From a virus (lineage: Duplodnaviria > Caudoviricetes), in the IMG/VR virus record IMGVR_UViG_2832142748_000002, positions 10,418-74,417 of that record: a DNA stretch of 64,000 bases. One strand, written 5' to 3'. The position numbers and the translations under genes were made by a program. Below are positions 2,208-15,353 of the stretch, piece after piece; the first letter of the stretch is position 1, and each line of letters opens with the position of its first letter. The notes below the pieces were generated by a model. It was not told where the DNA came from and did not search any database. It saw only the letters and a program-made list of their open reading frames with translations.

Positions 2208-3005
2208 ATGACGGGCACCAACACAACCACGGGCACCGCGGAGAAACCGCCGGAGCGCAGCTTGGTGCGCAAGCTGGCCGAGGTCATGGGCGAGGTGGAG
2301 CGCGTCCCGAAGTCAGGGCGCAACGACTTCCACCGCTACGACTACGCGACCGAGGCAGACATCGTCTCGGCCGTTCGGAAGGCCATGGCGGACCGCGCCC
2401 TCATGCTGATTCCCTCCGTGGTGAAGACGGAGTGGCGCGAGGTGGAGCGCAACAAGGGCGGCAAGGACCGAATCGCAACGCTGACCGTGCGCTTCACACT
2501 GACCGACGGCGACAGCGGCGAAGAGCGGTCGTTCGAGGTGCTCGGCGAGGGGCAGGACCAGGGCGACAAGGCCACGTACAAGGCGCTCACCGGAGCGGTG
2601 AAGTACGCCTTGCTCAAGCTCTTCCTGATTCCCACTGGCGATGACCCGGAGGATGACGGGCAAGGCCAAAGCCAGCAGTCCCAGCGCGGAAGCCAGCAGC
2701 GCCCTCGTCAAGCAATGGACGACGGACCGCCCCCTCAGCGCACGGGTGCCCCGGCTCCTCGCACTACTCCTCGGAGTGGAGGTGCCGACGACGTCGCCGC
2801 CGCCATCGTCTCTGAAGCCGAGCAGGTGACCAAGGAGGAGTTCCCCGCGCTCTACGGGCGTGCACAAGGCCTCCCCAAGGGGAGCAAGGCTCGGGAGGTG
2901 GCGGGCGAAGCCGTGAAGGCCTCCGCAAAGCGCCTGGGCTTCTCTGCCAAGCAGGTTGCCGCCATGCAGAAGCCGGTGGGACGCGAGCCCGGCGCGGAGG
3001 GCTGA
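2208..3005 (+). CDS. erf: ERF-family single-strand annealing protein
   Basis: KSGRNDFHRYDYATEADIVSAVR...GEGQDQGDKATYKALTGAVKYALLKLFLIPTGDDPE is the ERF core, followed by a low-complexity tail. Confidence 0.92.
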   Translation: MTGTNTTTGTAEKPPERSLVRKLAEVMGEVERVPKSGRNDFHRYDYATEADIVSAVRKAMADRALMLIPSVVKTEWREVERNKGGKDRIATLTVRFTLTDGDSGEERSFEVLGEGQDQGDKATYKALTGAVKYALLKLFLIPTGDDPEDDGQGQSQQSQRGSQQRPRQAMDDGPPPQRTGAPAPRTTPRSGGADDVAAAIVSEAEQVTKEEFPALYGRAQGLPKGSKAREVAGEAVKASAKRLGFSAKQVAAMQKPVGREPGAEG

Positions 3006-5761: not shown

Positions 5762-6636
5762 AGCCAGCGGACGTCAGCGGCCTGCCGAAGGAGCTGGAGG
5801 AAGTCCGTCGCATCGCACTGGGCGAAGTGCCCGCCGATGAGGCGCAGGTCCGGGCCGCGCTGGCTCAGGCATGGGCCTGGCTCGCGCCGCTGACGTCCGC
5901 ACTATTGCCGGCTGAACCGTCGCCCGGCGCGGCGAAGCACACGACCGAGGATGTGGAACGGTGGTTCCGGGCAGTGGTCGCGCGGACAAAGGGTTCCACC
6001 GAAACGGTGATGGCCCGGATGCTCCGGGACGCCGCGCTGGAGGGCGCTAAGGTGCCGGGGCTGGTGGCGGACAACGCCGTCCTCCTGAAGCTCGCCCTGG
6101 ATGACGTCCCCGCGTGCGATTGGCAAAGCGGGCGGGGCACGTGTGACGAGACGGGGCGCCAGCCGCGGTGCCAATTCTGCCTGCGCCGGGATGAGCTGAT
6201 GAACAGCCCCGGCGCATCCATGCTCGCAGAGCACGAGACGAAGGTGTCCGCCCTCCAGGCCCAGGTGGCGCATCTCACGGCCGAACTGGACAACCTGAAG
6301 GACTGCGAGCAAGGGGCGAATGCCGTTGCAGTTGAGGCGATGGCTGCGCAGCGCAAGGCCGAGTCCGAGCAGGACGAAGAACGCAAGGCGGTGGAGGCGA
6401 TGACGAAGGCCATCGACAAGCACCTCCCCGGCATCTGCCCGGCGCAGTCCCCGGACGAGGGCATCCACCTGCTGGCCGAGCAGCGCGACGCCGCCCAGGC
6501 CCGCGTGGCGGAGCTGGAGCGCGAGTTGCGCATTCGCAACGATGACCACGCTTTCGAGCAGGACATGCGCATCAAGACCGAGTCCGAGCGCGACGCCCTC
6601 CGCGCAGGTGGAGGCGGTGCGCGACAGGGCGACTGA
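5758..6636 (+). CDS. Coiled-coil phage protein, probably frameshifted near 6601
   Basis: ATGA overlap with the upstream stop. ERDALRA continues naturally as QVEAVRD in the +1 frame. Confidence 0.6.
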   Translation: MKPADVSGLPKELEEVRRIALGEVPADEAQVRAALAQAWAWLAPLTSALLPAEPSPGAAKHTTEDVERWFRAVVARTKGSTETVMARMLRDAALEGAKVPGLVADNAVLLKLALDDVPACDWQSGRGTCDETGRQPRCQFCLRRDELMNSPGASMLAEHETKVSALQAQVAHLTAELDNLKDCEQGANAVAVEAMAAQRKAESEQDEERKAVEAMTKAIDKHLPGICPAQSPDEGIHLLAEQRDAAQARVAELERELRIRNDDHAFEQDMRIKTESERDALRAGGGGARQGD

Positions 6637-6755
6637 GGTGGCGGCGGCGCGGCAGGATCTGGCGGAGTGGGATCAGCAGACCGTGCTCTCATTCGAAGGG
6701 CTCCAGAAGGAAGGGCTCTCTGCATTCACCGAACTCTCGGCGGCGTTGGGGGAGG

Positions 6756-7286
6756 TTGTTCCTCGCCATCCCCGCCCCGCCCGCCGAGACGCGAGCCGAC
6801 GAGGCGTCATGCGCGGGTGACGTCCCACCGTGCGAGGACTCCATGTGCGGCGACCCGGTGTGCACGAAGCACCGCGGCGCAACGCCCGCCCCGAACTCTC
6901 CGGCTCTTCCGGAGGGTTCGACTCCGCCCGCCGAACCTGAAAGCGGGGCTTACACGTTGGCGGCGCGACGCTGGCTGGCGGCCGTTGAGCGCGCGGCCTC
7001 GAATGAGGCCGTCGCGAGTCGCTACCTAGTCAACGCCAATGGCGCATCCGTCCACCCCGGGGCGCTGCGCGAGGCCGTCCGCTGGGTGCTCCGCGGAGAC
7101 GAGCCGGTTTGCGGCGAGCCCTCCACCGTGCAGGGCAGCGGCAAACCCGCCTCAAACCCCATGCTGTCCGCGCTCGACGTGCGCACCGCGGCGCCGCCGG
7201 GTCTGCGAGTGCGCGCCTTCGTTAACACCGTCATCGCAACAAGGGCCGGGCTCTCCTCTTCCTGTCCCGGCTCCTCACTCGCTTGA
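6756..7286 (+). CDS. Hypothetical protein or distal part of the frameshifted 5758 gene
   Basis: Coding-like third positions; contains a 12-bp hairpin encoding NSPALPEGS (6892-6920). Confidence 0.4.
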   Translation: MFLAIPAPPAETRADEASCAGDVPPCEDSMCGDPVCTKHRGATPAPNSPALPEGSTPPAEPESGAYTLAARRWLAAVERAASNEAVASRYLVNANGASVHPGALREAVRWVLRGDEPVCGEPSTVQGSGKPASNPMLSALDVRTAAPPGLRVRAFVNTVIATRAGLSSSCPGSSLA

Positions 7287-7416
7287 GAGAGCGTTGCGGC
7301 ACTTCAGTGAACCTCTGACCTCTCTGCATCCCGAGCCGCTTGAGGTGCGCCTCTCGTCTCGGGTCCTGGGTTCTGCCAAAATGCCCACGGGGGGCAGCAT
7401 TCGCATGAGAGAGCAC

Positions 7417-10400
7417 ATGCCCAGGCAAATTCTGACGTTGTGGCTCTGCGCCACCATGACACTCGGTGACCTCGCACAGGCCGCGCAGACACAACAGGCA
7501 CAAGACGTTTCACCGAGGCTCCGCGGGCTGCTCGCAGCTCTCGATGATCCGAGCGGCCAAGTGGCGGCTGGAGCGCTGCGGTTGTTGATCAAGGAGAAGC
7601 GGGTTCCGGATGAACAGATCCCGCGTCTCGGCCGCATGCTCAAGGACCCCAATCCGCAAACCCGCCTTGACACAGCGCAGGCTTTGGGAGTCCTCGGCAA
7701 GGCCGCCAAGCAGCACGCCCCCCTCCTCACCGGCCTTCTCAGGGATCCAGACGTGTCCGTCCGCCAAGCTGCTGCGGAGGCCCTGGGAGCCATGGGTGAG
7801 GCCGCCAAGGATCAGGCTCCCCTCCTCGTCGACATGCTCAAGGACCCGGATGTGAACGTCCGAATTGCAGCAACGTTTGCGCTGAGAGAAATGGGCAAGG
7901 CCGCACAGGATCAAACCCTACGACTTACCGGCTTGCTGAAAGACCAGCACGGTGGTGTCCGCGCAGCAGCAGTGCAGGTGCTGGTAGCCATAGGCAAAGT
8001 TCCCAAGGAGGAGGCTCCGCACCTCGGCGACCTGCTCAAGGCCCCCAAGGAGAGCGTCCGCTATGCAGCAACGCAAGCGCTGGGCGCCCTGGGCGAGGCA
8101 GCCAAGGAGCAAGCTCCACTCCTCGTTGGCATGCTCAAGGATCCGGATAGTGGCGTCCGTGAGGCCGCAGTTCTAGCACTGGGTAACATGGGCGAGGCAG
8201 CCAAGGAGCAGGCTCCACTCCTCGTTGGCATGCTCAAGGACCCTAATGAGAATGTCAGTAGAGGAGCAGCAAAGGCTCTGGGCGCCATGGGCGAGGCAGC
8301 CAAGGAACAAGCCCCCCTCCTCGTTGACATGCTCAAGGATCCAGACTGGTCCATCCTCATCCCTGCTTTGCAGGCGCTGCAAGCCATGGGCAAGGCCGCC
8401 AGGGAACAGGTCCCGCGCATTAGCAACCTGCTCAAGGATCCGTCACCGTTCCGTCGAATTGTAGCAGCGGAATTGCTGGGACACATGGGCGAGGCAGCCA
8501 AGGAGCAGGCTCCACTCCTCGTTGGCATGCTCAAGGACCCTAATGAGAATGTCAGTAAAGGAGCAGCAAAGGCTCTGGGCGCCCTGGGCGAGACAGCCAA
8601 GGAGCAGGCTCCATACCTCGCCGACATGCTCAAGGACCCTAATGAGAAAGTCCGCGATGCGGCAGTGCAAGCGCTGCAATACATGGGCAAGGCCGCTAAG
8701 GATCAAGCTCCGCACCTTGTCGGCCTGCTCAAGGACCCCGAGAAGGACGTCCGCAAGGAAGCAGCGGCGGCACTGGGAGCCATGGGCGAGGCAGCCAAGG
8801 AGCAGGCTCCATACCTCGCCGACATGCTCAAGGACCCCGATGAGAAAGTCCGCCTTGCAGCAGCGAAGGCGCTGAGCGACATGGGCGAGTTTGACAGGAA
8901 GTACGCGCCTCTAGCTCTGGAGCTTCTGGAGAACGAAACAGTTCAGTATGACTATGAAGCCAAGGGTCTCCTCATGACCATGGCCCCGCTCGAACTCCAG
9001 CACGTTGTCCTGCTCCTGGCGAAGGCAAGCGCGAATCCATGGGATCGCAACGACTGGCTGTTATGCGCTCACGTTACGGGCGGTGGTGAGCCACCGGTGG
9101 AGCGCGTCCTACGTTGGCTCCCAAGGCGGGCCTTCGCGGGACTCCCAACGGAGCTGACGCTCGAGGAGGCCCGGGAGACGATGCATGCGTTCGCCGTGGT
9201 CTGGCAACATTCCGGGAAGTACCCTGACCTGCGGGATGATCTAGCGGAGCAGATTGTACGAGTGGCCAGCCTTACCAAAGGCCAGTGGACGCTCACTGAC
9301 GACAAGCTACTCGTGCAGCATCAGACAAACCTGAAGGCCTCCTACCCGGCGCATGCCGAGAGACTTCAGGCCATCAGGTCCTCTCTAGAGAGCTGGGGGA
9401 GAGTGAAGACCTTCGCGTGGACCTGGGTGGGGCACCTCTGCTTCTGGTTGCTCCTCCTGTTCGTCTACCCACGCTCGCCGCAAGTCCAGGCGGTTTTCTT
9501 CTGGAATCCGTGGGTGCGCACCATCACGGGCTTCGGGTATGTGGGCCTTCTGTTGACATGGGTGCCGATCCTGCGGCGCCGCCTCCTCGCGCCCTTTGCG
9601 AACCAGCTCCTGGCGGATGCAGATCTCGAGCGTTTCCCCAAGGAGAGTTACTTCCACGGCTCCCAGGTCTTCATCCCGTCCGCGGGCCGGAGCGTCCCCC
9701 TGCTCTCCGCCGTCCCCCAGCTGCGAGGCCAAGTGGTCTTGGAGGGAGCCTCGGGCCTGGGCAAGTCGCTGTTCATCCGGTACCTGCTCCGCCACTCGAA
9801 GCAGCTCACGGTGTTTCTGCCCGCAGAGCGATGCCGGGAGGGTGTACTTGAGGCCATCCAGGCCAAGCTGGAGGGGCATGCGAAGGACACCGCCTTCCTG
9901 CAGAGCATCATTTACAGCGGCGCACTGGACATCTACATCGACGGACTCAACGAGGTGACGGCAGACACGCGTGCTCGCATCGTCCAGTTCGTCGAGCGCA
10001 ACTTCCACGGCAACATCCTGCTTGCCACCCAGCGCATGGAGTGGACACCGCCCATCACGGCGCGCCTGTACGTGCTGCAGCCCCTCTCCGACGCCCAGGT
10101 GTCCGAGTTTCTGGCCAGCCGTGAGGTGCTGCTGGGTGAGAAGGCGCGGCTGCGTGGTCCAGAGTACCTCCAGTCATGTGAGCGATTCGTGCAGCGAGTC
10201 CTCGCCCCCGAGCAGCCCGAGGAGCTGCGCCTGTCGATGCGCGAGGTGCTCTCCAACCCGATGGACCTCACCGTCATCGCGCAGATGCTGGGCGAGGGGC
10301 ACTCGCCGGATCTGTTCCGCCTGCGGCAGCAGCAATACGAGCTGATGGCCAGGGACTACCTGGAGGTCAACCTCGCAGAGTTCCCGCTGAATGGGTTCGC

Positions 10401-10878
10401 CGAGGAGTGCCACAGGATGCGGCTCGAGGATCGGCCGTCTCTGCCGGAGGAGCGCTTCGGTAAGGAGTTGCTGCGCCTGGAGTCCTTCAAGATCGTGGTG
10501 CGCCGGCAGTGGAAGGGGCCTGACGGGCGGGAGCACCGCGAGTGGCGTTTCCGCCATGACAAGCTTCAAGAATTCTTCATCGCCCAGGCACTCCTGGGGC
10601 AGGGCAACCCCCGCATTGCCCAGCACATGGACGATCCGCGCTTCCGGGGCGTCTACTTCCTGTTGGCGCTGCTGATGGATCCGGAGAGCGCGCATCAACT
10701 GCGAGATCGGCTGGTCGTTCACGCCGCCAGGACCCGCGACCACAGCGTGAGCGATGAGTTCGTCACCCTGCTGGAGGCGCGGCGCAAGTCCGAGCAGCTC
10801 CTGCATGCGCCGCCCCCGCGACCGCAGGATGACTCAGATCCCTCAAACAAGCACGGAGGAGGCGAGCGCGTGGCATGA
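7417..10878 (+). CDS. Signal peptide + HEAT repeats + transmembrane helices + NACHT/STAND-like P-loop NTPase
   Basis: MPRQILTLWLCATMTLGDLAQA signal; about 15 repeats of 31 aa (LKDPxxxVRxAAAxALGxMGEAAKEQAPLLV); hydrophobic segments FAWTWVGHLCFWLLLLFVY and ITGFGYVGLLLTWVPIL; Walker A GASGLGKS; Walker B LDIYIDGLNE. The start could also be 7381 or 7405. Confidence 0.85.
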   Translation: MPRQILTLWLCATMTLGDLAQAAQTQQAQDVSPRLRGLLAALDDPSGQVAAGALRLLIKEKRVPDEQIPRLGRMLKDPNPQTRLDTAQALGVLGKAAKQHAPLLTGLLRDPDVSVRQAAAEALGAMGEAAKDQAPLLVDMLKDPDVNVRIAATFALREMGKAAQDQTLRLTGLLKDQHGGVRAAAVQVLVAIGKVPKEEAPHLGDLLKAPKESVRYAATQALGALGEAAKEQAPLLVGMLKDPDSGVREAAVLALGNMGEAAKEQAPLLVGMLKDPNENVSRGAAKALGAMGEAAKEQAPLLVDMLKDPDWSILIPALQALQAMGKAAREQVPRISNLLKDPSPFRRIVAAELLGHMGEAAKEQAPLLVGMLKDPNENVSKGAAKALGALGETAKEQAPYLADMLKDPNEKVRDAAVQALQYMGKAAKDQAPHLVGLLKDPEKDVRKEAAAALGAMGEAAKEQAPYLADMLKDPDEKVRLAAAKALSDMGEFDRKYAPLALELLENETVQYDYEAKGLLMTMAPLELQHVVLLLAKASANPWDRNDWLLCAHVTGGGEPPVERVLRWLPRRAFAGLPTELTLEEARETMHAFAVVWQHSGKYPDLRDDLAEQIVRVASLTKGQWTLTDDKLLVQHQTNLKASYPAHAERLQAIRSSLESWGRVKTFAWTWVGHLCFWLLLLFVYPRSPQVQAVFFWNPWVRTITGFGYVGLLLTWVPILRRRLLAPFANQLLADADLERFPKESYFHGSQVFIPSAGRSVPLLSAVPQLRGQVVLEGASGLGKSLFIRYLLRHSKQLTVFLPAERCREGVLEAIQAKLEGHAKDTAFLQSIIYSGALDIYIDGLNEVTADTRARIVQFVERNFHGNILLATQRMEWTPPITARLYVLQPLSDAQVSEFLASREVLLGEKARLRGPEYLQSCERFVQRVLAPEQPEELRLSMREVLSNPMDLTVIAQMLGEGHSPDLFRLRQQQYELMARDYLEVNLAEFPLNGFAEECHRMRLEDRPSLPEERFGKELLRLESFKIVVRRQWKGPDGREHREWRFRHDKLQEFFIAQALLGQGNPRIAQHMDDPRFRGVYFLLALLMDPESAHQLRDRLVVHAARTRDHSVSDEFVTLLEARRKSEQLLHAPPPRPQDDSDPSNKHGGGERVA
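8187..8583 (+). repeat. Near-identical intragenic HEAT-repeat copies
   Basis: About 100 bp at 8187-8286 recurs at 8484-8583 with one mismatch that I could see; further related copies lie between ~7750 and 8880. Confidence 0.85.
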
Positions 10879-10921
10879 GGCAGCGGCCAGGAAGGTGCGG
10901 ATGAAGTAGAGGACACCGCGA

Positions 10922-11215
10922 GTGGACTGGGCAGAGTTTAACAGGAGGACATTTGCGGACACGCCCTGGTCCTCGTCCCGGATGAAGTCTGCCGCGCTTG
11001 CATATTGGCCCAAGTTGGAGGGTCGACATGCAGGGGCCTGGAGTGAAGCTGAAGCAGGCGGAGAAGGAGGCGCTGGACGCGCTGATGTCTCGTACGGTGG
11101 CGTCTGCGACACCTGCTCCATCCCCGGGCGCAACAACCAGTGCGGCTCGCTGTGCAGCAACCCCGCGCAGTGCCAGTACTCCGCGTCCGGCAACTTCCAC
11201 ACCTGCGGATTCTGA
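10922..11215 (+). CDS. Small ORF with a six-cysteine C-terminal domain (start uncertain)
   Basis: CDTCSIPGRNNQCGSLCSNPAQCQYSASGNFHTCGF with good GC3 in the 3' half; the 5' half is doubtful. Confidence 0.35.
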   Translation: MDWAEFNRRTFADTPWSSSRMKSAALAYWPKLEGRHAGAWSEAEAGGEGGAGRADVSYGGVCDTCSIPGRNNQCGSLCSNPAQCQYSASGNFHTCGF

Positions 11216-11336
11216 CGCCCGCTCGTCTGTGGACGGCCGTCCCTGCCGCGAGATGGGACTGTAGGGCAAGCCCAGAGGGGAGACGCAGGGCACGCGCGCT
11301 GCACACCTCCGGAGGGACACGCCTCACGGAGCCAGC

Positions 11337-12377
11337 ATGGACGCCATCTCACGCAGCCGCACCGCTCTCCTCCCCACCACCTACCGCGAGCCCGCAGAGC
11401 AGCCCCAGCGCTCCACGCCGAAGCCCCGGGTCCTGGAGAGGTCAATCAACACCGTCGACGCATTCACGCCGCACACGCCCACCCACAAGGCGCTCGTAGA
11501 CCAGGTCCGCCGCACGACGACGCCCACGGCCATCTCCATCCGCCCGCCTACCGAGGGTCTGACGAAGTCGGCGGAGAGCGAGCCGCGCGTCTCCGCCCAG
11601 GGCTTCTTCAGCTCCGTCGGCGACGCGCTGAAGGACTTCGGCGGGCGCGTGGTGGACGGAGTGGCTGGCATCGGCAAAGGCATCTACGACAGCGTCAAGG
11701 GCACCCTGAAGAACACCTGGGAGATGGCGGAGACGTTCGGAAAGGGCATCGCCAACATCTTCACTGGCCGCTTCGCGGAGGGCTTCACCCAGCTCGGACT
11801 GAGCGTCCTCAAGGCCATCCAGACGCCGACGGACGGGCTCCTGCGCCTGGGAGGAAGCATCCTCAGCGCCATCCAGACGATGCTCTTCATCGAGCCCACG
11901 AGCCGCAAGCTGACGGGCGACGAGCTGGCGGCGCTGCACGAGGTGTACGGGGACTCCATCGACTACACGCGCATCGAGATCAAGGAAGGCAACGCGGGGC
12001 TTCTCACGGTGGGGGGACGACCCTTCACCCATGGGGACACCATCTACATTCCCAAGGACTCACTGCCCCTGCAGCCGGAACTGCTCGTGCACGAGGCGGC
12101 CCACGTGTGGCAGCACCAGCACGGGGGCAACGACTACATGTCCGAGGCCCTGGTGGCGCAGCTCTTCGGCGACGGCTACAACGTCGGCAAGGCCCTCCGG
12201 CAAGGCAAGTCCTGGGAGCAGATGAACCCGGAGCAGCAGGCGGAGTTCATTGAGTTGGCCTTCGGTCAGGGCTGCTTCGAGACGCCGCCGGCGCCGTTCG
12301 AGCTCGGCGGCAAGGACTACACTCAACAGCTTGAGGCCGCGAAGAAGTCCCTCCGCGCCGGCCAGGGAGCACCGTGA
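11337..12377 (+). CDS. HExxH zinc-metallopeptidase-like protein (DUF4157-like C-terminal domain)
   Basis: RKLTGDEL...VYGDSIDYTRIEI...PFTHGDTIY...LLVHEAAHVWQ; amphipathic Gly-rich middle region. Confidence 0.75.
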   Translation: MDAISRSRTALLPTTYREPAEQPQRSTPKPRVLERSINTVDAFTPHTPTHKALVDQVRRTTTPTAISIRPPTEGLTKSAESEPRVSAQGFFSSVGDALKDFGGRVVDGVAGIGKGIYDSVKGTLKNTWEMAETFGKGIANIFTGRFAEGFTQLGLSVLKAIQTPTDGLLRLGGSILSAIQTMLFIEPTSRKLTGDELAALHEVYGDSIDYTRIEIKEGNAGLLTVGGRPFTHGDTIYIPKDSLPLQPELLVHEAAHVWQHQHGGNDYMSEALVAQLFGDGYNVGKALRQGKSWEQMNPEQQAEFIELAFGQGCFETPPAPFELGGKDYTQQLEAAKKSLRAGQGAP

Positions 12378-12787
12378 CCATGCGCCTCCACCGCGTCTTG
12401 CCGCGCGCGCTCGTCGTCCTCCAGGTGTTGCTCCTCACCGCCTGCCAACCGCCGCTGGAGGTGACGCTCGCCTCCGGCAACGAGCGCCTGCCCGGCCCCG
12501 TCTTCCTCGTCGACGAGCCGTCCCAGGACGGGGGGCCGCCGCGGTACGACGTCATCCGCGTGCTGTCCGCAGACGGGACGCAGGTGTGGCACGTCCGCGC
12601 CCTCTCCTTCGGTGGGACGCGCGGACGCCGCGTCGTCTACGGCGAGGTGCCGGAGGGCTTCGAGACGGTGCAGCCCCCACAGCCCTTGGAGAGCGGGCGT
12701 CTCTACAGCATCGGCGTCTCAGGGGAAGCGTCGGGCGCGCTGCGCTTCATCGTCGGACAGGACGGCGACGTCCGGCCGGAGAAGTAG
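12374..12787 (+). CDS. Lipoprotein coupled to the HExxH gene
   Basis: GTGA overlap; lipobox LLTAC. Confidence 0.75.
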   Translation: MTMRLHRVLPRALVVLQVLLLTACQPPLEVTLASGNERLPGPVFLVDEPSQDGGPPRYDVIRVLSADGTQVWHVRALSFGGTRGRRVVYGEVPEGFETVQPPQPLESGRLYSIGVSGEASGALRFIVGQDGDVRPEK

Positions 12788-14243: not shown

Positions 14244-14885
14244 ATGTCAGCCGCTTTCGTCCTCCGCAGCGCCGTGAGCGCCGCCGCGATCCTCGCCCTC
14301 GCCGGGTGCGGGTCGGCTACCGTCGGTGGGGGTGGTAGTTCTGCGCGTGCGAAGTGGGTCGGCTCGGTCGTCAGGACGCCGGACGGCGGGCAGCTGCGCA
14401 CGACCATCTACTACGGGCCCTGGCAGTGCAGCGCCGCGTTCCTGTCCCGCTGCGAGTCGAAGTGCGCGGCGCAGGGCTACCCTCTCATGGGCTGCATGTG
14501 GCTGGCCGACATCAAGGGGGACTGGCAGGGGCGCTACCTCTTCATGCCCGCGGAGGCCGGTGGCCGCCTCGCCATCACCCACTGCTGTTGCGATTACCCG
14601 ACCGTGTCGAACGGCCGCCAGTTGCGGGAGAAGTGGAAAAACGCCCGTGAAGGCTTTCGTCGCCAGTGGGGCTCTGAGTTCGGAGAGTGGCCGTCAACGA
14701 ACGGGGCCAACTGGCAGGGCCACCACATCTTCGATTTGGCGCACGGCGGTCCGCCGGTGGCGCCCGACAACGTGCTTCCGGTGCCGCAGGACGTCCACCA
14801 AGTCTTCAACGACGAATACCCCGCCTGCTACGCCCCTGGCGGCAAATGGCTCACGCCAGGTCCCGCGCGGCCGTACGTGGACTGA
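14244..14885 (+). CDS. Lipoprotein with C-terminal HNH-type nuclease toxin (SitA-like)
   Basis: Lipobox LAGC; Cys-rich middle; GHHIFDLAHGGPPVAPDNVLPVPQDVH HNH-like motif; immunity-type gene immediately downstream. Confidence 0.8.
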   Translation: MSAAFVLRSAVSAAAILALAGCGSATVGGGGSSARAKWVGSVVRTPDGGQLRTTIYYGPWQCSAAFLSRCESKCAAQGYPLMGCMWLADIKGDWQGRYLFMPAEAGGRLAITHCCCDYPTVSNGRQLREKWKNAREGFRRQWGSEFGEWPSTNGANWQGHHIFDLAHGGPPVAPDNVLPVPQDVHQVFNDEYPACYAPGGKWLTPGPARPYVD

Positions 14886-14894
14886 GGAGCCACC

Positions 14895-15353
14895 ATGTCC
14901 ATGGAAAGCCTGCTGGCCGAAGTCTCCCGACTCCACTTCCCTCGCCCTCCTGCCACGCTCGCGCAGGTCGCCGCCTTCGAGGCACGCGTGGGGTGGAGGC
15001 TTGATGAGGACCTGCGCGCCTTCTACCTGCACTGCGATGGATGTGATCTCTTCGTTTCCTCGCCGGACACCCGCTTCCGCGTGCTGCCGCTGGAGCAAAT
15101 CATGCGGGCGCGCATCGCCGTCCGCGGCAACGACAGGGACGAAGCCGGAGCGGCATCCCTCTACACGCTCGTGGACATGCAGGACTCCGACTACGTCGTC
15201 CTGGACGTGGCACGGAGTGAGTCCGGCCGCTACTCCCTCTTCGACGCGTGGCACGAGACGTTCCCCGAACTGGTGCCTGTTGCATCGTCCTTCAGCGAGT
15301 TCCTGGAGAAGGCGCTTCGCAGCAGCAACAGCGCCTTCTGGCTGGACGGATGA
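14895..15353 (+). CDS. SMI1/KNR4 (SUKH) family immunity protein
   Basis: PATLAQVAAFEARVGWRLDEDLRAFYLHCDG is the SUKH signature. Confidence 0.88.
   Translation: MSMESLLAEVSRLHFPRPPATLAQVAAFEARVGWRLDEDLRAFYLHCDGCDLFVSSPDTRFRVLPLEQIMRARIAVRGNDRDEAGAASLYTLVDMQDSDYVVLDVARSESGRYSLFDAWHETFPELVPVASSFSEFLEKALRSSNSAFWLDG

Follow-up and report, generated by a model that had tools for sequence, protein, structure and literature searches.

Here we present P0002, a divergent NACHT-type STAND protein with an inverted domain layout, encoded on the plus strand of a 64,000 nt stretch of the IMG/VR virus record IMGVR_UViG_2832142748_000002 (hereafter the window, within which all positions are numbered). The protein is most likely membrane-spanning, is carried on a mobile prophage cassette and has a fast-changing sensor, and it is a variant of the bacterial NLRs. 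As a whole, the observations are best explained by a single-chain membrane-spanning NLR-like receptor that is accessory cargo of a temperate siphovirus-type Corallococcus prophage, a reading to which we give slightly better than even chances. To our knowledge, every NLR/STAND immune receptor so far studied detects its ligand in the cytoplasm; in animals and plants, other receptor classes such as Toll-like receptors and receptor kinases do the extracellular sensing. Judging from the sequence and the predicted model, the NLR chassis may serve bacteria as a surface-type receptor. If the sensor does stand outside the membrane, a NACHT switch can be operated from the far side of a membrane, and this in a large conserved bacterial family.

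The gene lies within one long uninterrupted open reading frame (ORF; 7039-10878). We chose the start at 7417 (MPRQILTLW...), which is the NCBI start of P0003, the best relative, from Corallococcus exiguus, and with which the N-termini of all relatives agree. The start at 7039 was rejected, as it adds 126 Ala/Pro/Arg-rich residues without counterpart in any relative. From its N-terminus, P0002 consists of a signal-peptide-like stretch, a HEAT array, a helical stalk, a membrane helix, a conserved loop with a hairpin and a NACHT module (Table 1). An earlier note on this DNA had described such an inverted order, with the repeats N-terminal and NACHT C-terminal, and the domain order confirms it.

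A complete NACHT module without a separate effector domain

P0002 contains a complete NACHT module, consisting of nucleotide-binding domain (NBD), helical domain 1 (HD1), winged-helix domain (WHD) and helical domain 2 (HD2), and lacks a separate effector domain. An AlphaFold2 model of residues 490-1153, built with 58 sequences, reached a pLDDT of 87.5 and a pTM of 0.66. The best matches that Foldseek returned for this model were all NLRs (NLRC4, NLRP3, NOD2, NAIP5 and NLRP9; E ~1e-6). On realignment, autoinhibited NLRC4 (4kxf) scored Z 20.9 over 378 residues at 4.0 A, model residues 221-638 (710-1127 of the protein) being matched to NLRC4 residues 93-570. Closed NLRP3 and ADP-bound NOD2 gave Z 18.7-19.5, and NLRP3, NOD2 and NLRP9 together span Z 18-19.5. 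Lower scores were obtained for the NRC1 NB-ARC (13.1), open active NLRC4 (~12), Apaf-1 (11.7) and MalT (11.5). With a predicted model as the query, the NBD-HD1-WHD-HD2 fold is thus nearer to NACHT than to NB-ARC or MalT, and the module is predicted in the closed, ADP-type resting form.

The motifs agree with this assignment. Both signatures read in the earlier note, a GxSGxGKS Walker A and a DGLNE Walker B, were found at residues 777-784 and 837-846. Walker A fits the GxxxxGK[ST] P-loop and, like the DGLNE of Walker B and the winged-helix FRHDKxxEFF, is near-invariant across the family; Walker B lies in the most conserved 20-mer of the protein (0.91), fits hhhhDG(h)(D/N)E and aligns to the Walker B of NLRC4 in a profile match. 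In the winged-helix motif, which is of the FxHxxxQEF type, the R, H and K are invariant in the family profile A1. A second profile, A2, made from ten short family members and run against the Protein Data Bank (PDB), placed NLRC4 at the top (5e-4), aligned from before Walker A through strand 4. The structure matches, profile A2 and the motifs together bear out in silico the NACHT-type STAND NTPase proposed in the earlier note, and on the predicted model the NTPase is a divergent member of the NACHT clade of STAND proteins. The same note had also seen a helical tail with no obvious effector: the absence of a separate effector stands, and the tail is the HD1-WHD-HD2 part of the NACHT module rather than an extra region. 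Beyond HD2 only ~28 disordered residues follow before the protein ends, with no further domain.

Several searches were unproductive. The NTPase half as a single query gave only weak matches in Pfam, to AAA_16 and AAA_22 (both sub-threshold) and to sigma-54, and phmmer with the same half against the PDB returned nothing meaningful. Profile A1 against the PDB was swamped by HEAT/alphaRep proteins, and profile A2 from the short members was used instead. NCBIfam and PADLOC searches with P0002 matched only the HEAT array or HEAT-containing models.

The HEAT array and the stalk

The predicted sensor is an array of HEAT repeats. Pfam matched P0002 with HEAT_2 (6e-86) and HEAT (7e-72) in 12 separate stretches, and Tandem Repeats Finder reported 12.3 copies of a 99-nt unit (66% matches) together with a 297-nt super-period (79%), the mark of a recent duplication of three repeats. 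Over residues 101-496 the array can be laid out as twelve in-register units, each exactly 33 residues long, with about two degenerate units N-terminal to them. The array of about 15 HEAT repeats claimed earlier is therefore real, though the count comes to ~14.

The all-helical, family-specific domain between the array and the membrane is confidently predicted when folded alone (AlphaFold2, residues 490-665; pLDDT 93.3, pTM 0.89). Compared with known structures, its model gave generic helical-repeat matches only (Z at most 9.1), and it therefore cannot be assigned to any known sensor or stalk fold. In the model of residues 490-1153, the stalk helix is continuous with the first membrane helix (TM1) over model residues 155-197.

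Predicted membrane topology

Five in-silico lines point to an exported HEAT array: signal-like N-termini, hydropathy, charges, a broken hairpin in the model and a variant with a periplasmic binding protein (PBP) domain. On a heuristic reading, the N-terminus of P0002 (MPRQ / ILTLWLCATMTLG / DLAQA-AQ) has the n/h/c pattern of a signal peptide, with small residues at -3 and -1. Across the relatives an A-x-A or V-x-A follows the h-region, as in ..ARA/AP and ..AQA/AQ of myxobacteria and ..PWVSA/KE and ..PWVNA/KE of Nostoc. A strongly hydrophobic N-terminal 12-mer is present in 125 of the 163 full-length-like members and is preceded by a mean of 3.0 Lys+Arg and 0.27 Asp+Glu.

Two hydrophobic segments separate the stalk from the NACHT module. 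In Kyte-Doolittle 19-mer windows TM1 peaks at 1.71 (family median 1.65), and the second segment (residues 702-719) at 1.27 (family median 1.22), with values of at least 1.6 in 4% of members. A crude insertion-energy sum is +0.4 for TM1 of P0002 and about 4-5 kcal/mol worse for the second segment (scale of Hessa et al. 2005, no position weighting; only the difference between the segments is meaningful). Charges were averaged over 133 members. The loop of 19 residues that joins the two segments has 3.09 Lys+Arg and 0.02 Asp+Glu, and 3.45 Lys+Arg fall within the 15 residues C-terminal to the second segment; the 15 residues before TM1 hold 1.47 Lys+Arg and 1.0 Asp+Glu. Since its flanks are strongly positive on both sides, the positive-inside rule places both ends of the second segment in the cytoplasm. 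In the AlphaFold2 model (DSSP) this segment is split at GFGY, a GxGY turn, into two 7-residue helices. The hairpin of residues 685-719 is probably re-entrant or interfacial on the cytoplasmic face, a geometry read only from DSSP, hydropathy and charge counts.

A metagenomic relative, P0151, which is 47% identical in the NACHT module, offers a natural domain replacement. In place of the HEAT array of P0002 it carries a signal anchor together with a Peripla_BP_6/ANF-receptor domain (8e-37), ahead of the same TM-NACHT unit; its hydropathy profile shows one strong transmembrane peak (2.19) and no second one. The sequence of P0151 indicates that the sensor position accepts other extracytoplasmic-type domains. 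In this protein the Peripla_BP_6 match covers residues 41-379, and a beta-rich region of ~220 residues (400-620) without Pfam match precedes the TM-NACHT unit.

A signal peptide combined with two true spans would leave the NTPase in the periplasm, which is implausible; the five lines decide in favour of one span. We regard it as quite probable, from sequence features and the model, that the HEAT array lies outside the cytoplasm, that the chain crosses the membrane once and that NACHT lies inside. The extracytoplasmic array envisaged in the earlier note is accordingly the best-supported topology in silico. Its "two or more" transmembrane segments need revision: there are two hydrophobic segments, but these make one span and a probable re-entrant hairpin instead of two full spans.

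Residues 685-719 form the most conserved region of the protein, their mean majority fraction of 0.82 exceeding those of the NBD (0.77) and of the last HEAT unit and stalk (0.42-0.49). Being conserved beyond the needs of an anchor, in a protein with no other output domain, they are a candidate effector or coupling element. That this membrane module is itself the effector is a tentative proposal, and one that we hold to be doubtful.

A variable putative sensor on a mobile cassette

The C. exiguus protein P0003 is 98% identical to P0002 over the C-terminal 511 residues and sits at the same place in a related C. exiguus prophage (locus L009), where the downstream genes are the same and the upstream set is different. 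DNA identity between the two prophages is 0.585 (unrelated) left of 7200, rises to 95-99% at 7201-8200, is 82-92% at 8201-9200, reaches 97-100% at 9401-11000 and falls to the 82-92% of the backbone further right. Apart from the HEAT middle, the identity of the cassette exceeds that of the backbone, and the gene unit is thus younger or more recently exchanged than the surrounding prophage. The gene is a separately acquired accessory unit of the prophage, of the moron type.

Within the gene the two alleles have diverged very unevenly. The TM+NACHT part differs by 4 non-synonymous and 14 synonymous changes in 492 codons, giving a non-synonymous rate (dN) of 0.0036, a synonymous rate (dS) of 0.039 and a ratio (omega) of 0.09. 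For HEAT repeats 5-14, dN is 0.117, dS 0.22 and the ratio 0.53, with a one-repeat indel in addition; the stalk has a dN of 0.065 and a ratio of 0.57. By analogy, a variable sensor joined to a constant switch is the pairing shown by immune receptors. Repeat shuffling, gene conversion or mis-registered repeats may explain part or much of the HEAT divergence without positive selection, which we do not claim for the array. Two near-identical prophage alleles with different HEAT middles would amount to a natural specificity-swap experiment.

The prophage setting is firm. The host prophage is complete, of siphovirus type, and lies in a Corallococcus genome. At 23-53 kb, minus-strand genes were identified by PHROGs as the large terminase, portal, head morphogenesis, major head, minor tail, tape measure and tail assembly proteins and the central tail fibre J. 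These structural genes and the cassette boundaries bear out the suggestion that the gene is prophage-carried.

Family and distribution

With the C-terminal half as query, a word-indexed search returned 718 proteins, and an exhaustive search yielded 731 clusters at 50% identity, of which 424 had values below 1e-30. Where a source is named, the sequences come from Corallococcus, Archangium, Myxococcus, Vitiosangium, Hyalangium, many Nostocales, and Entotheonellia and Bipolaricaulia metagenome-assembled genomes. The relatives from Nostocales are ~50% identical over ~500 residues of the signalling half. The distribution is patchy: within the taxonomic family of the window, 8 of the 121 genomes carry the gene, representing 4 of the 51 genera, and at the genus level it occurs in one of 7 other genomes; its own genome has one copy.

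Some relatives (among P0133, P0144, P0181 and P0245) carry a second STAND NTPase (AAA_16, nSTAND1/nSTAND6) after NACHT, and one has a C-terminal EAD11 adaptor; these extensions could be true fusions or merged gene calls. In Archangium gephyra (locus L016, with positions of that locus) the homologue lies between a gene for a 2155-residue WD40 protein (1-1100) and one for a GT4-conflict glycosyltransferase (10998-12203), the only conflict-type neighbourhood among the five chromosomal contexts examined.

Proposed mechanism and alternatives

The mechanism that we propose for a membrane-spanning receptor would run as follows. A Sec signal peptide would export the ~14 HEAT repeats and the helical stalk to the periplasm, and the last stalk helix would continue as the sole true membrane span. 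The near-invariant Trp/Pro/Arg-rich loop and hairpin would lie at or in the cytoplasmic leaflet, with NACHT in the cytoplasm in its closed state. A periplasmic ligand would bind the variable HEAT surface and the signal would pass down the continuous stalk-TM helix. NACHT would then open, swap its nucleotide and oligomerise like other STAND proteins, which would cluster the conserved membrane module. As there is no other effector domain, the clustered module would most likely itself damage or depolarise the membrane, which amounts to abortive infection or exclusion favouring the lysogen; recruitment of an unlinked effector would be the alternative. If true, this would provide a simple system for ligand-to-STAND signal transfer through a single helix and a candidate phage defence or exclusion acting before or during genome entry.

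We put a conflict or defence role at an even chance. Counting for it are the fast sensor joined to a near-frozen switch, the mobility of the cassette, the patchiness, the EAD11 relative, the second STAND NTPases and the conserved membrane module. For protection against phage, the place of the gene among prophage cargo is circumstantial evidence and no more. A more specific version sees a surface-type NLR whose diversifying HEAT antenna reads a periplasmic molecule and whose NACHT oligomerisation turns its own hairpin into a death or exclusion effector; the ligands may then be proteins that a superinfecting phage ejects, or else a lipoprotein toxin delivered through outer-membrane exchange. This version is speculative and, in our estimate, rather unlikely. 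Were it true, a single protein would be sensor, switch and executioner across the inner membrane, with no described counterpart among the NLRs of any kingdom.

A number of observations weigh against a membrane-spanning NACHT receptor in phage conflict. P0002 has no match to Pfam NACHT (PF05729) up to E 10, a gathering-score match to that model being a detection criterion and not a structural one, and at E values up to 1 none of the bNACHT and Avs models of PADLOC matched it. The search with NACHT models that the earlier note had suggested as a check thus gave nothing for P0002 itself; at the family level, profile A2 found NLRC4 first and 8 of the 10 short relatives matched Pfam NACHT below threshold (best 1.6e-5). 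NACHT proteins have a sensor-1 arginine of TSRP type after strand 4; at that place, an equivalence by sequence only, P0002 reads LLATQR and the family consensus TTQP, with T and Q invariant. The h-region of P0002 is weaker than the family median, its signal-peptide assignment being heuristic, and TM1 is only marginally hydrophobic in many relatives. PBP domains of the AmiC type can be cytoplasmic, and a PBP swap is no proof of export. Omega is below 1 throughout, and the HEAT region has a raised dS as well. A tblastn search of 50,697 phage records found no homologue. The five chromosomal homologue contexts have unrelated neighbours, no conserved partner and no consistent defence island such as the co-occurrence check of the earlier note looks for.

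There are three rival explanations. P0002 could be a membrane-tethered but fully cytoplasmic NLR, with an uncleaved N-out helix at its start and the two later segments as a true hairpin, whose HEAT repeats sense intracellular ligands and autoinhibit NACHT. Three hydrophobic segments are indeed present, the marginal TM1 of many relatives fits this arrangement, and STAND sensors are normally cytoplasmic (Kibby et al.). It would however require an N-terminal tail with a mean of 3 Lys+Arg to cross the membrane and a loop of net charge +3 to be periplasmic; the cleavage-type A-x-A/V-x-A motifs kept after the h-region and the existence of a PBP-domain variant speak against it; and its second span would fall short of the threshold in 96% of members, with a turn interrupting it in the model. 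The pTM of 0.66 despite a pLDDT of 87.5 also indicates, as weak evidence, that stalk and NACHT are not confidently docked. We consider this explanation quite unlikely. Alternatively, the HEAT array could be a scaffold or chaperone in the periplasm, held there by an ATPase whose task is to power envelope assembly or extraction. This would suit a membrane module as extremely conserved as a machine part, and HEAT arrays are often scaffolds. A NACHT fold with a winged-helix His motif, predicted closed, is nevertheless a switch and not a motor, HEAT repeats that vary 30-fold faster than the ATPase are unexpected of a scaffold, and no conserved partner genes were found in the five contexts, which makes this explanation highly improbable.

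More serious is a transmembrane STAND signalling receptor with no immune role, responding to an envelope, polysaccharide or kin-social signal through a cytoplasmic partner, the prophage copy being lysogenic-conversion cargo. Non-immune STAND regulators exist, MalT (Z 11.5) among the structural matches being one; the family is concentrated in myxobacteria and Nostocales, which are multicellular bacteria; homologues stand in ordinary chromosomal contexts without defence islands; and the neighbouring prophage cargo is a toxin/SUKH immunity pair. Yet the protein has no output domain for such a task (DNA-binding, kinase or cyclase), its occurrence is patchy even within the genus, and its nearest structural relatives are immune NLRs. 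Cassette mobility and hypervariability of the sensor half fit conflict systems better, and one relative has the EAD11 adaptor and one neighbourhood the GT4-conflict gene. On balance a purely signalling receptor appears unlikely to us.

Relation to known systems

Kibby et al. (10.1101/2022.07.19.500537) described a class of bacterial NACHT proteins with transmembrane regions, some of which likely sense intra-membrane or periplasmic signals. P0002 resembles these bNACHT proteins, which are related to NLRs and act against phage, in being a single-chain bacterial NACHT, and many bNACHT clades have repeat sensors, HEAT included. However, bNACHT proteins have the order effector-NACHT-sensor with cytoplasmic repeats, whereas the order in P0002 is signal peptide-HEAT-stalk-TM-NACHT with nothing after HD2. 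With NLRC4, NLRP3 and NOD2 (4kxf, 8sxn and 5irl) P0002 shares the NBD-HD1-WHD-HD2 arrangement (Z 18.7-20.9 over 359-378 residues, closed ADP-type forms best), a Walker B of the DG(L/F)xE type and a winged-helix His motif, at a sequence identity of only 10-13%. Animal NLRs are cytosolic, with a C-terminal leucine-rich repeat sensor and an N-terminal CARD or PYD; P0002 in contrast spans the membrane, and its HEAT sensor is N-terminal and probably exported.

The Avs proteins (Nature 2026, PMC13581612) are STAND NTPases too; they detect proteins of phages and form oligomers, and some have transmembrane effectors. Unlike P0002, which has no PADLOC Avs match, they are cytoplasmic, with an N-terminal effector and a C-terminal TPR-like sensor. 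Dore et al. (PNAS 2024, PMC10907252) reported STAND/NACHT conflict proteins diversified by diversity-generating retroelements, with C-type lectin (CLec) sensors predicted on either side of the membrane. Theirs is likewise an in-silico proposal of a periplasmic variable sensor on a STAND protein in multicellular bacteria. In those systems, though, the CLec is diversified by a retroelement and NACHT and CLec are together in the predicted periplasmic target, whereas in P0002 variation would arise from HEAT repeat turnover and NACHT would stay cytoplasmic. The conflict-system surveys of Kaur et al. include HEAT among the repeat types and transmembrane variants of other components, and not the HEAT-TM-NACHT layout. 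No described HEAT-TM-NACHT family was found in the open-access literature, which is no proof of absence.

Features and genomic neighbourhood

Table 1. Features of the P0002 gene and its cassette in the window
Feature	Position	Strand	Remarks
Mobile cassette	7201..11000	+	gene with ~215 nt upstream and ~120 nt downstream; common to the related C. exiguus prophage
Gene for the HEAT-TM-NACHT protein P0002	7417..10878	+	1153 aa; stop codon included
Signal-peptide-like N-terminus	7417..7482	+	residues 1-22, ending LAQA
HEAT-repeat array, predicted sensor	7504..8931	+	residues 30-505; ~14 units of 33 aa
Hypervariable stretch	8201..9200	+	HEAT repeats ~8-14 and start of stalk; 82-92% DNA identity to the C. 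exiguus allele
All-helical stalk domain, family-specific	8932..9402	+	residues 506-662; last helix runs into the membrane helix
Membrane helix TM1	9412..9468	+	residues 666-684
Conserved Pro/Trp/Arg-rich loop (PRSPQVQAVFFWNPWVR) and short hydrophobic hairpin	9469..9573	+	residues 685-719; GFGY turn, then RRR
NACHT module NBD-HD1-WHD-HD2	9712..10791	+	residues 766-1125; structure matches to NLRs, motifs
Walker A GASGLGKS	9745-9768	+	residues 777-784
Walker B LDIYIDGLNE	9925-9954	+	residues 837-846
Winged-helix His motif FRHDKLQEFF	10549-10578	+	residues 1045-1054
C-terminal tail, low-confidence and unconserved	10792..10875	+	residues 1126-1153; pLDDT 42-65, conservation 0.11

The gene is placed between the early region of the prophage and its toxin/immunity cargo. 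The early region includes an Erf-type annealase at 2208-3005 (+), with the PHROGs assignment at 2208-3002, and is mosaic: upstream of the gene in the related C. exiguus prophage, the early region (positions 6060-7037 of L009) carries an AAA_24 protein and has no Erf match among its called genes. Around the homologues of two other myxobacterial genomes (G112 and G056), ORF-level blastp found no shared prophage genes, so these homologues do not lie in a related prophage; this comparison replaced a tblastx of the window against the homologue loci, which was dropped as it gave high-GC noise only.

The DNA of the window is high in GC. The GC content at third codon positions (GC3) is 0.76 for the whole gene and 0.68 for its repeat part, compared with values above 0.80, mostly 0.81-0.97, for the neighbouring frames taken as coding. 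A consensus scan of 6600-11500 gave no usable promoter or terminator; its two "promoters" were dismissed, both lying inside repeated HEAT units. An antisense frame at 9933-10355 (-), with a GC3 of 0.87, falls within the NACHT-coding region and is also "conserved" in the homologue loci; it most likely reflects the high GC and the conservation of the sense strand and is not a gene.

Downstream, the frame at 14244-14885 (+) encodes a protein of 213 residues and is followed at 14895-15353 (+) by a SUKH-1 (SMI1/KNR4) immunity protein (8.6e-17), and by sequence the two are a toxin/immunity-type pair. The pair is also present in the related C. exiguus prophage, where it is only 78% identical. The frames at 11337-12377 and 12374-12787 (+), of 346 and 137 residues, keep their order in that prophage and are possibly another toxin-type cargo; the 346-residue product has only a weak eCIS_core/DUF4157-type match (0.005). 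Directly 3' of the gene, a small frame at 10922-11215 (+) runs across the right edge of the shared cassette. Its product ends Cys-rich, with 6 Cys in the last 37 residues (...CDTCSIPGRNNQCGSLCSNPAQCQYSASGNFHTCGF), and may be either a small peptide that is secreted or a frame open by chance in DNA of high GC.

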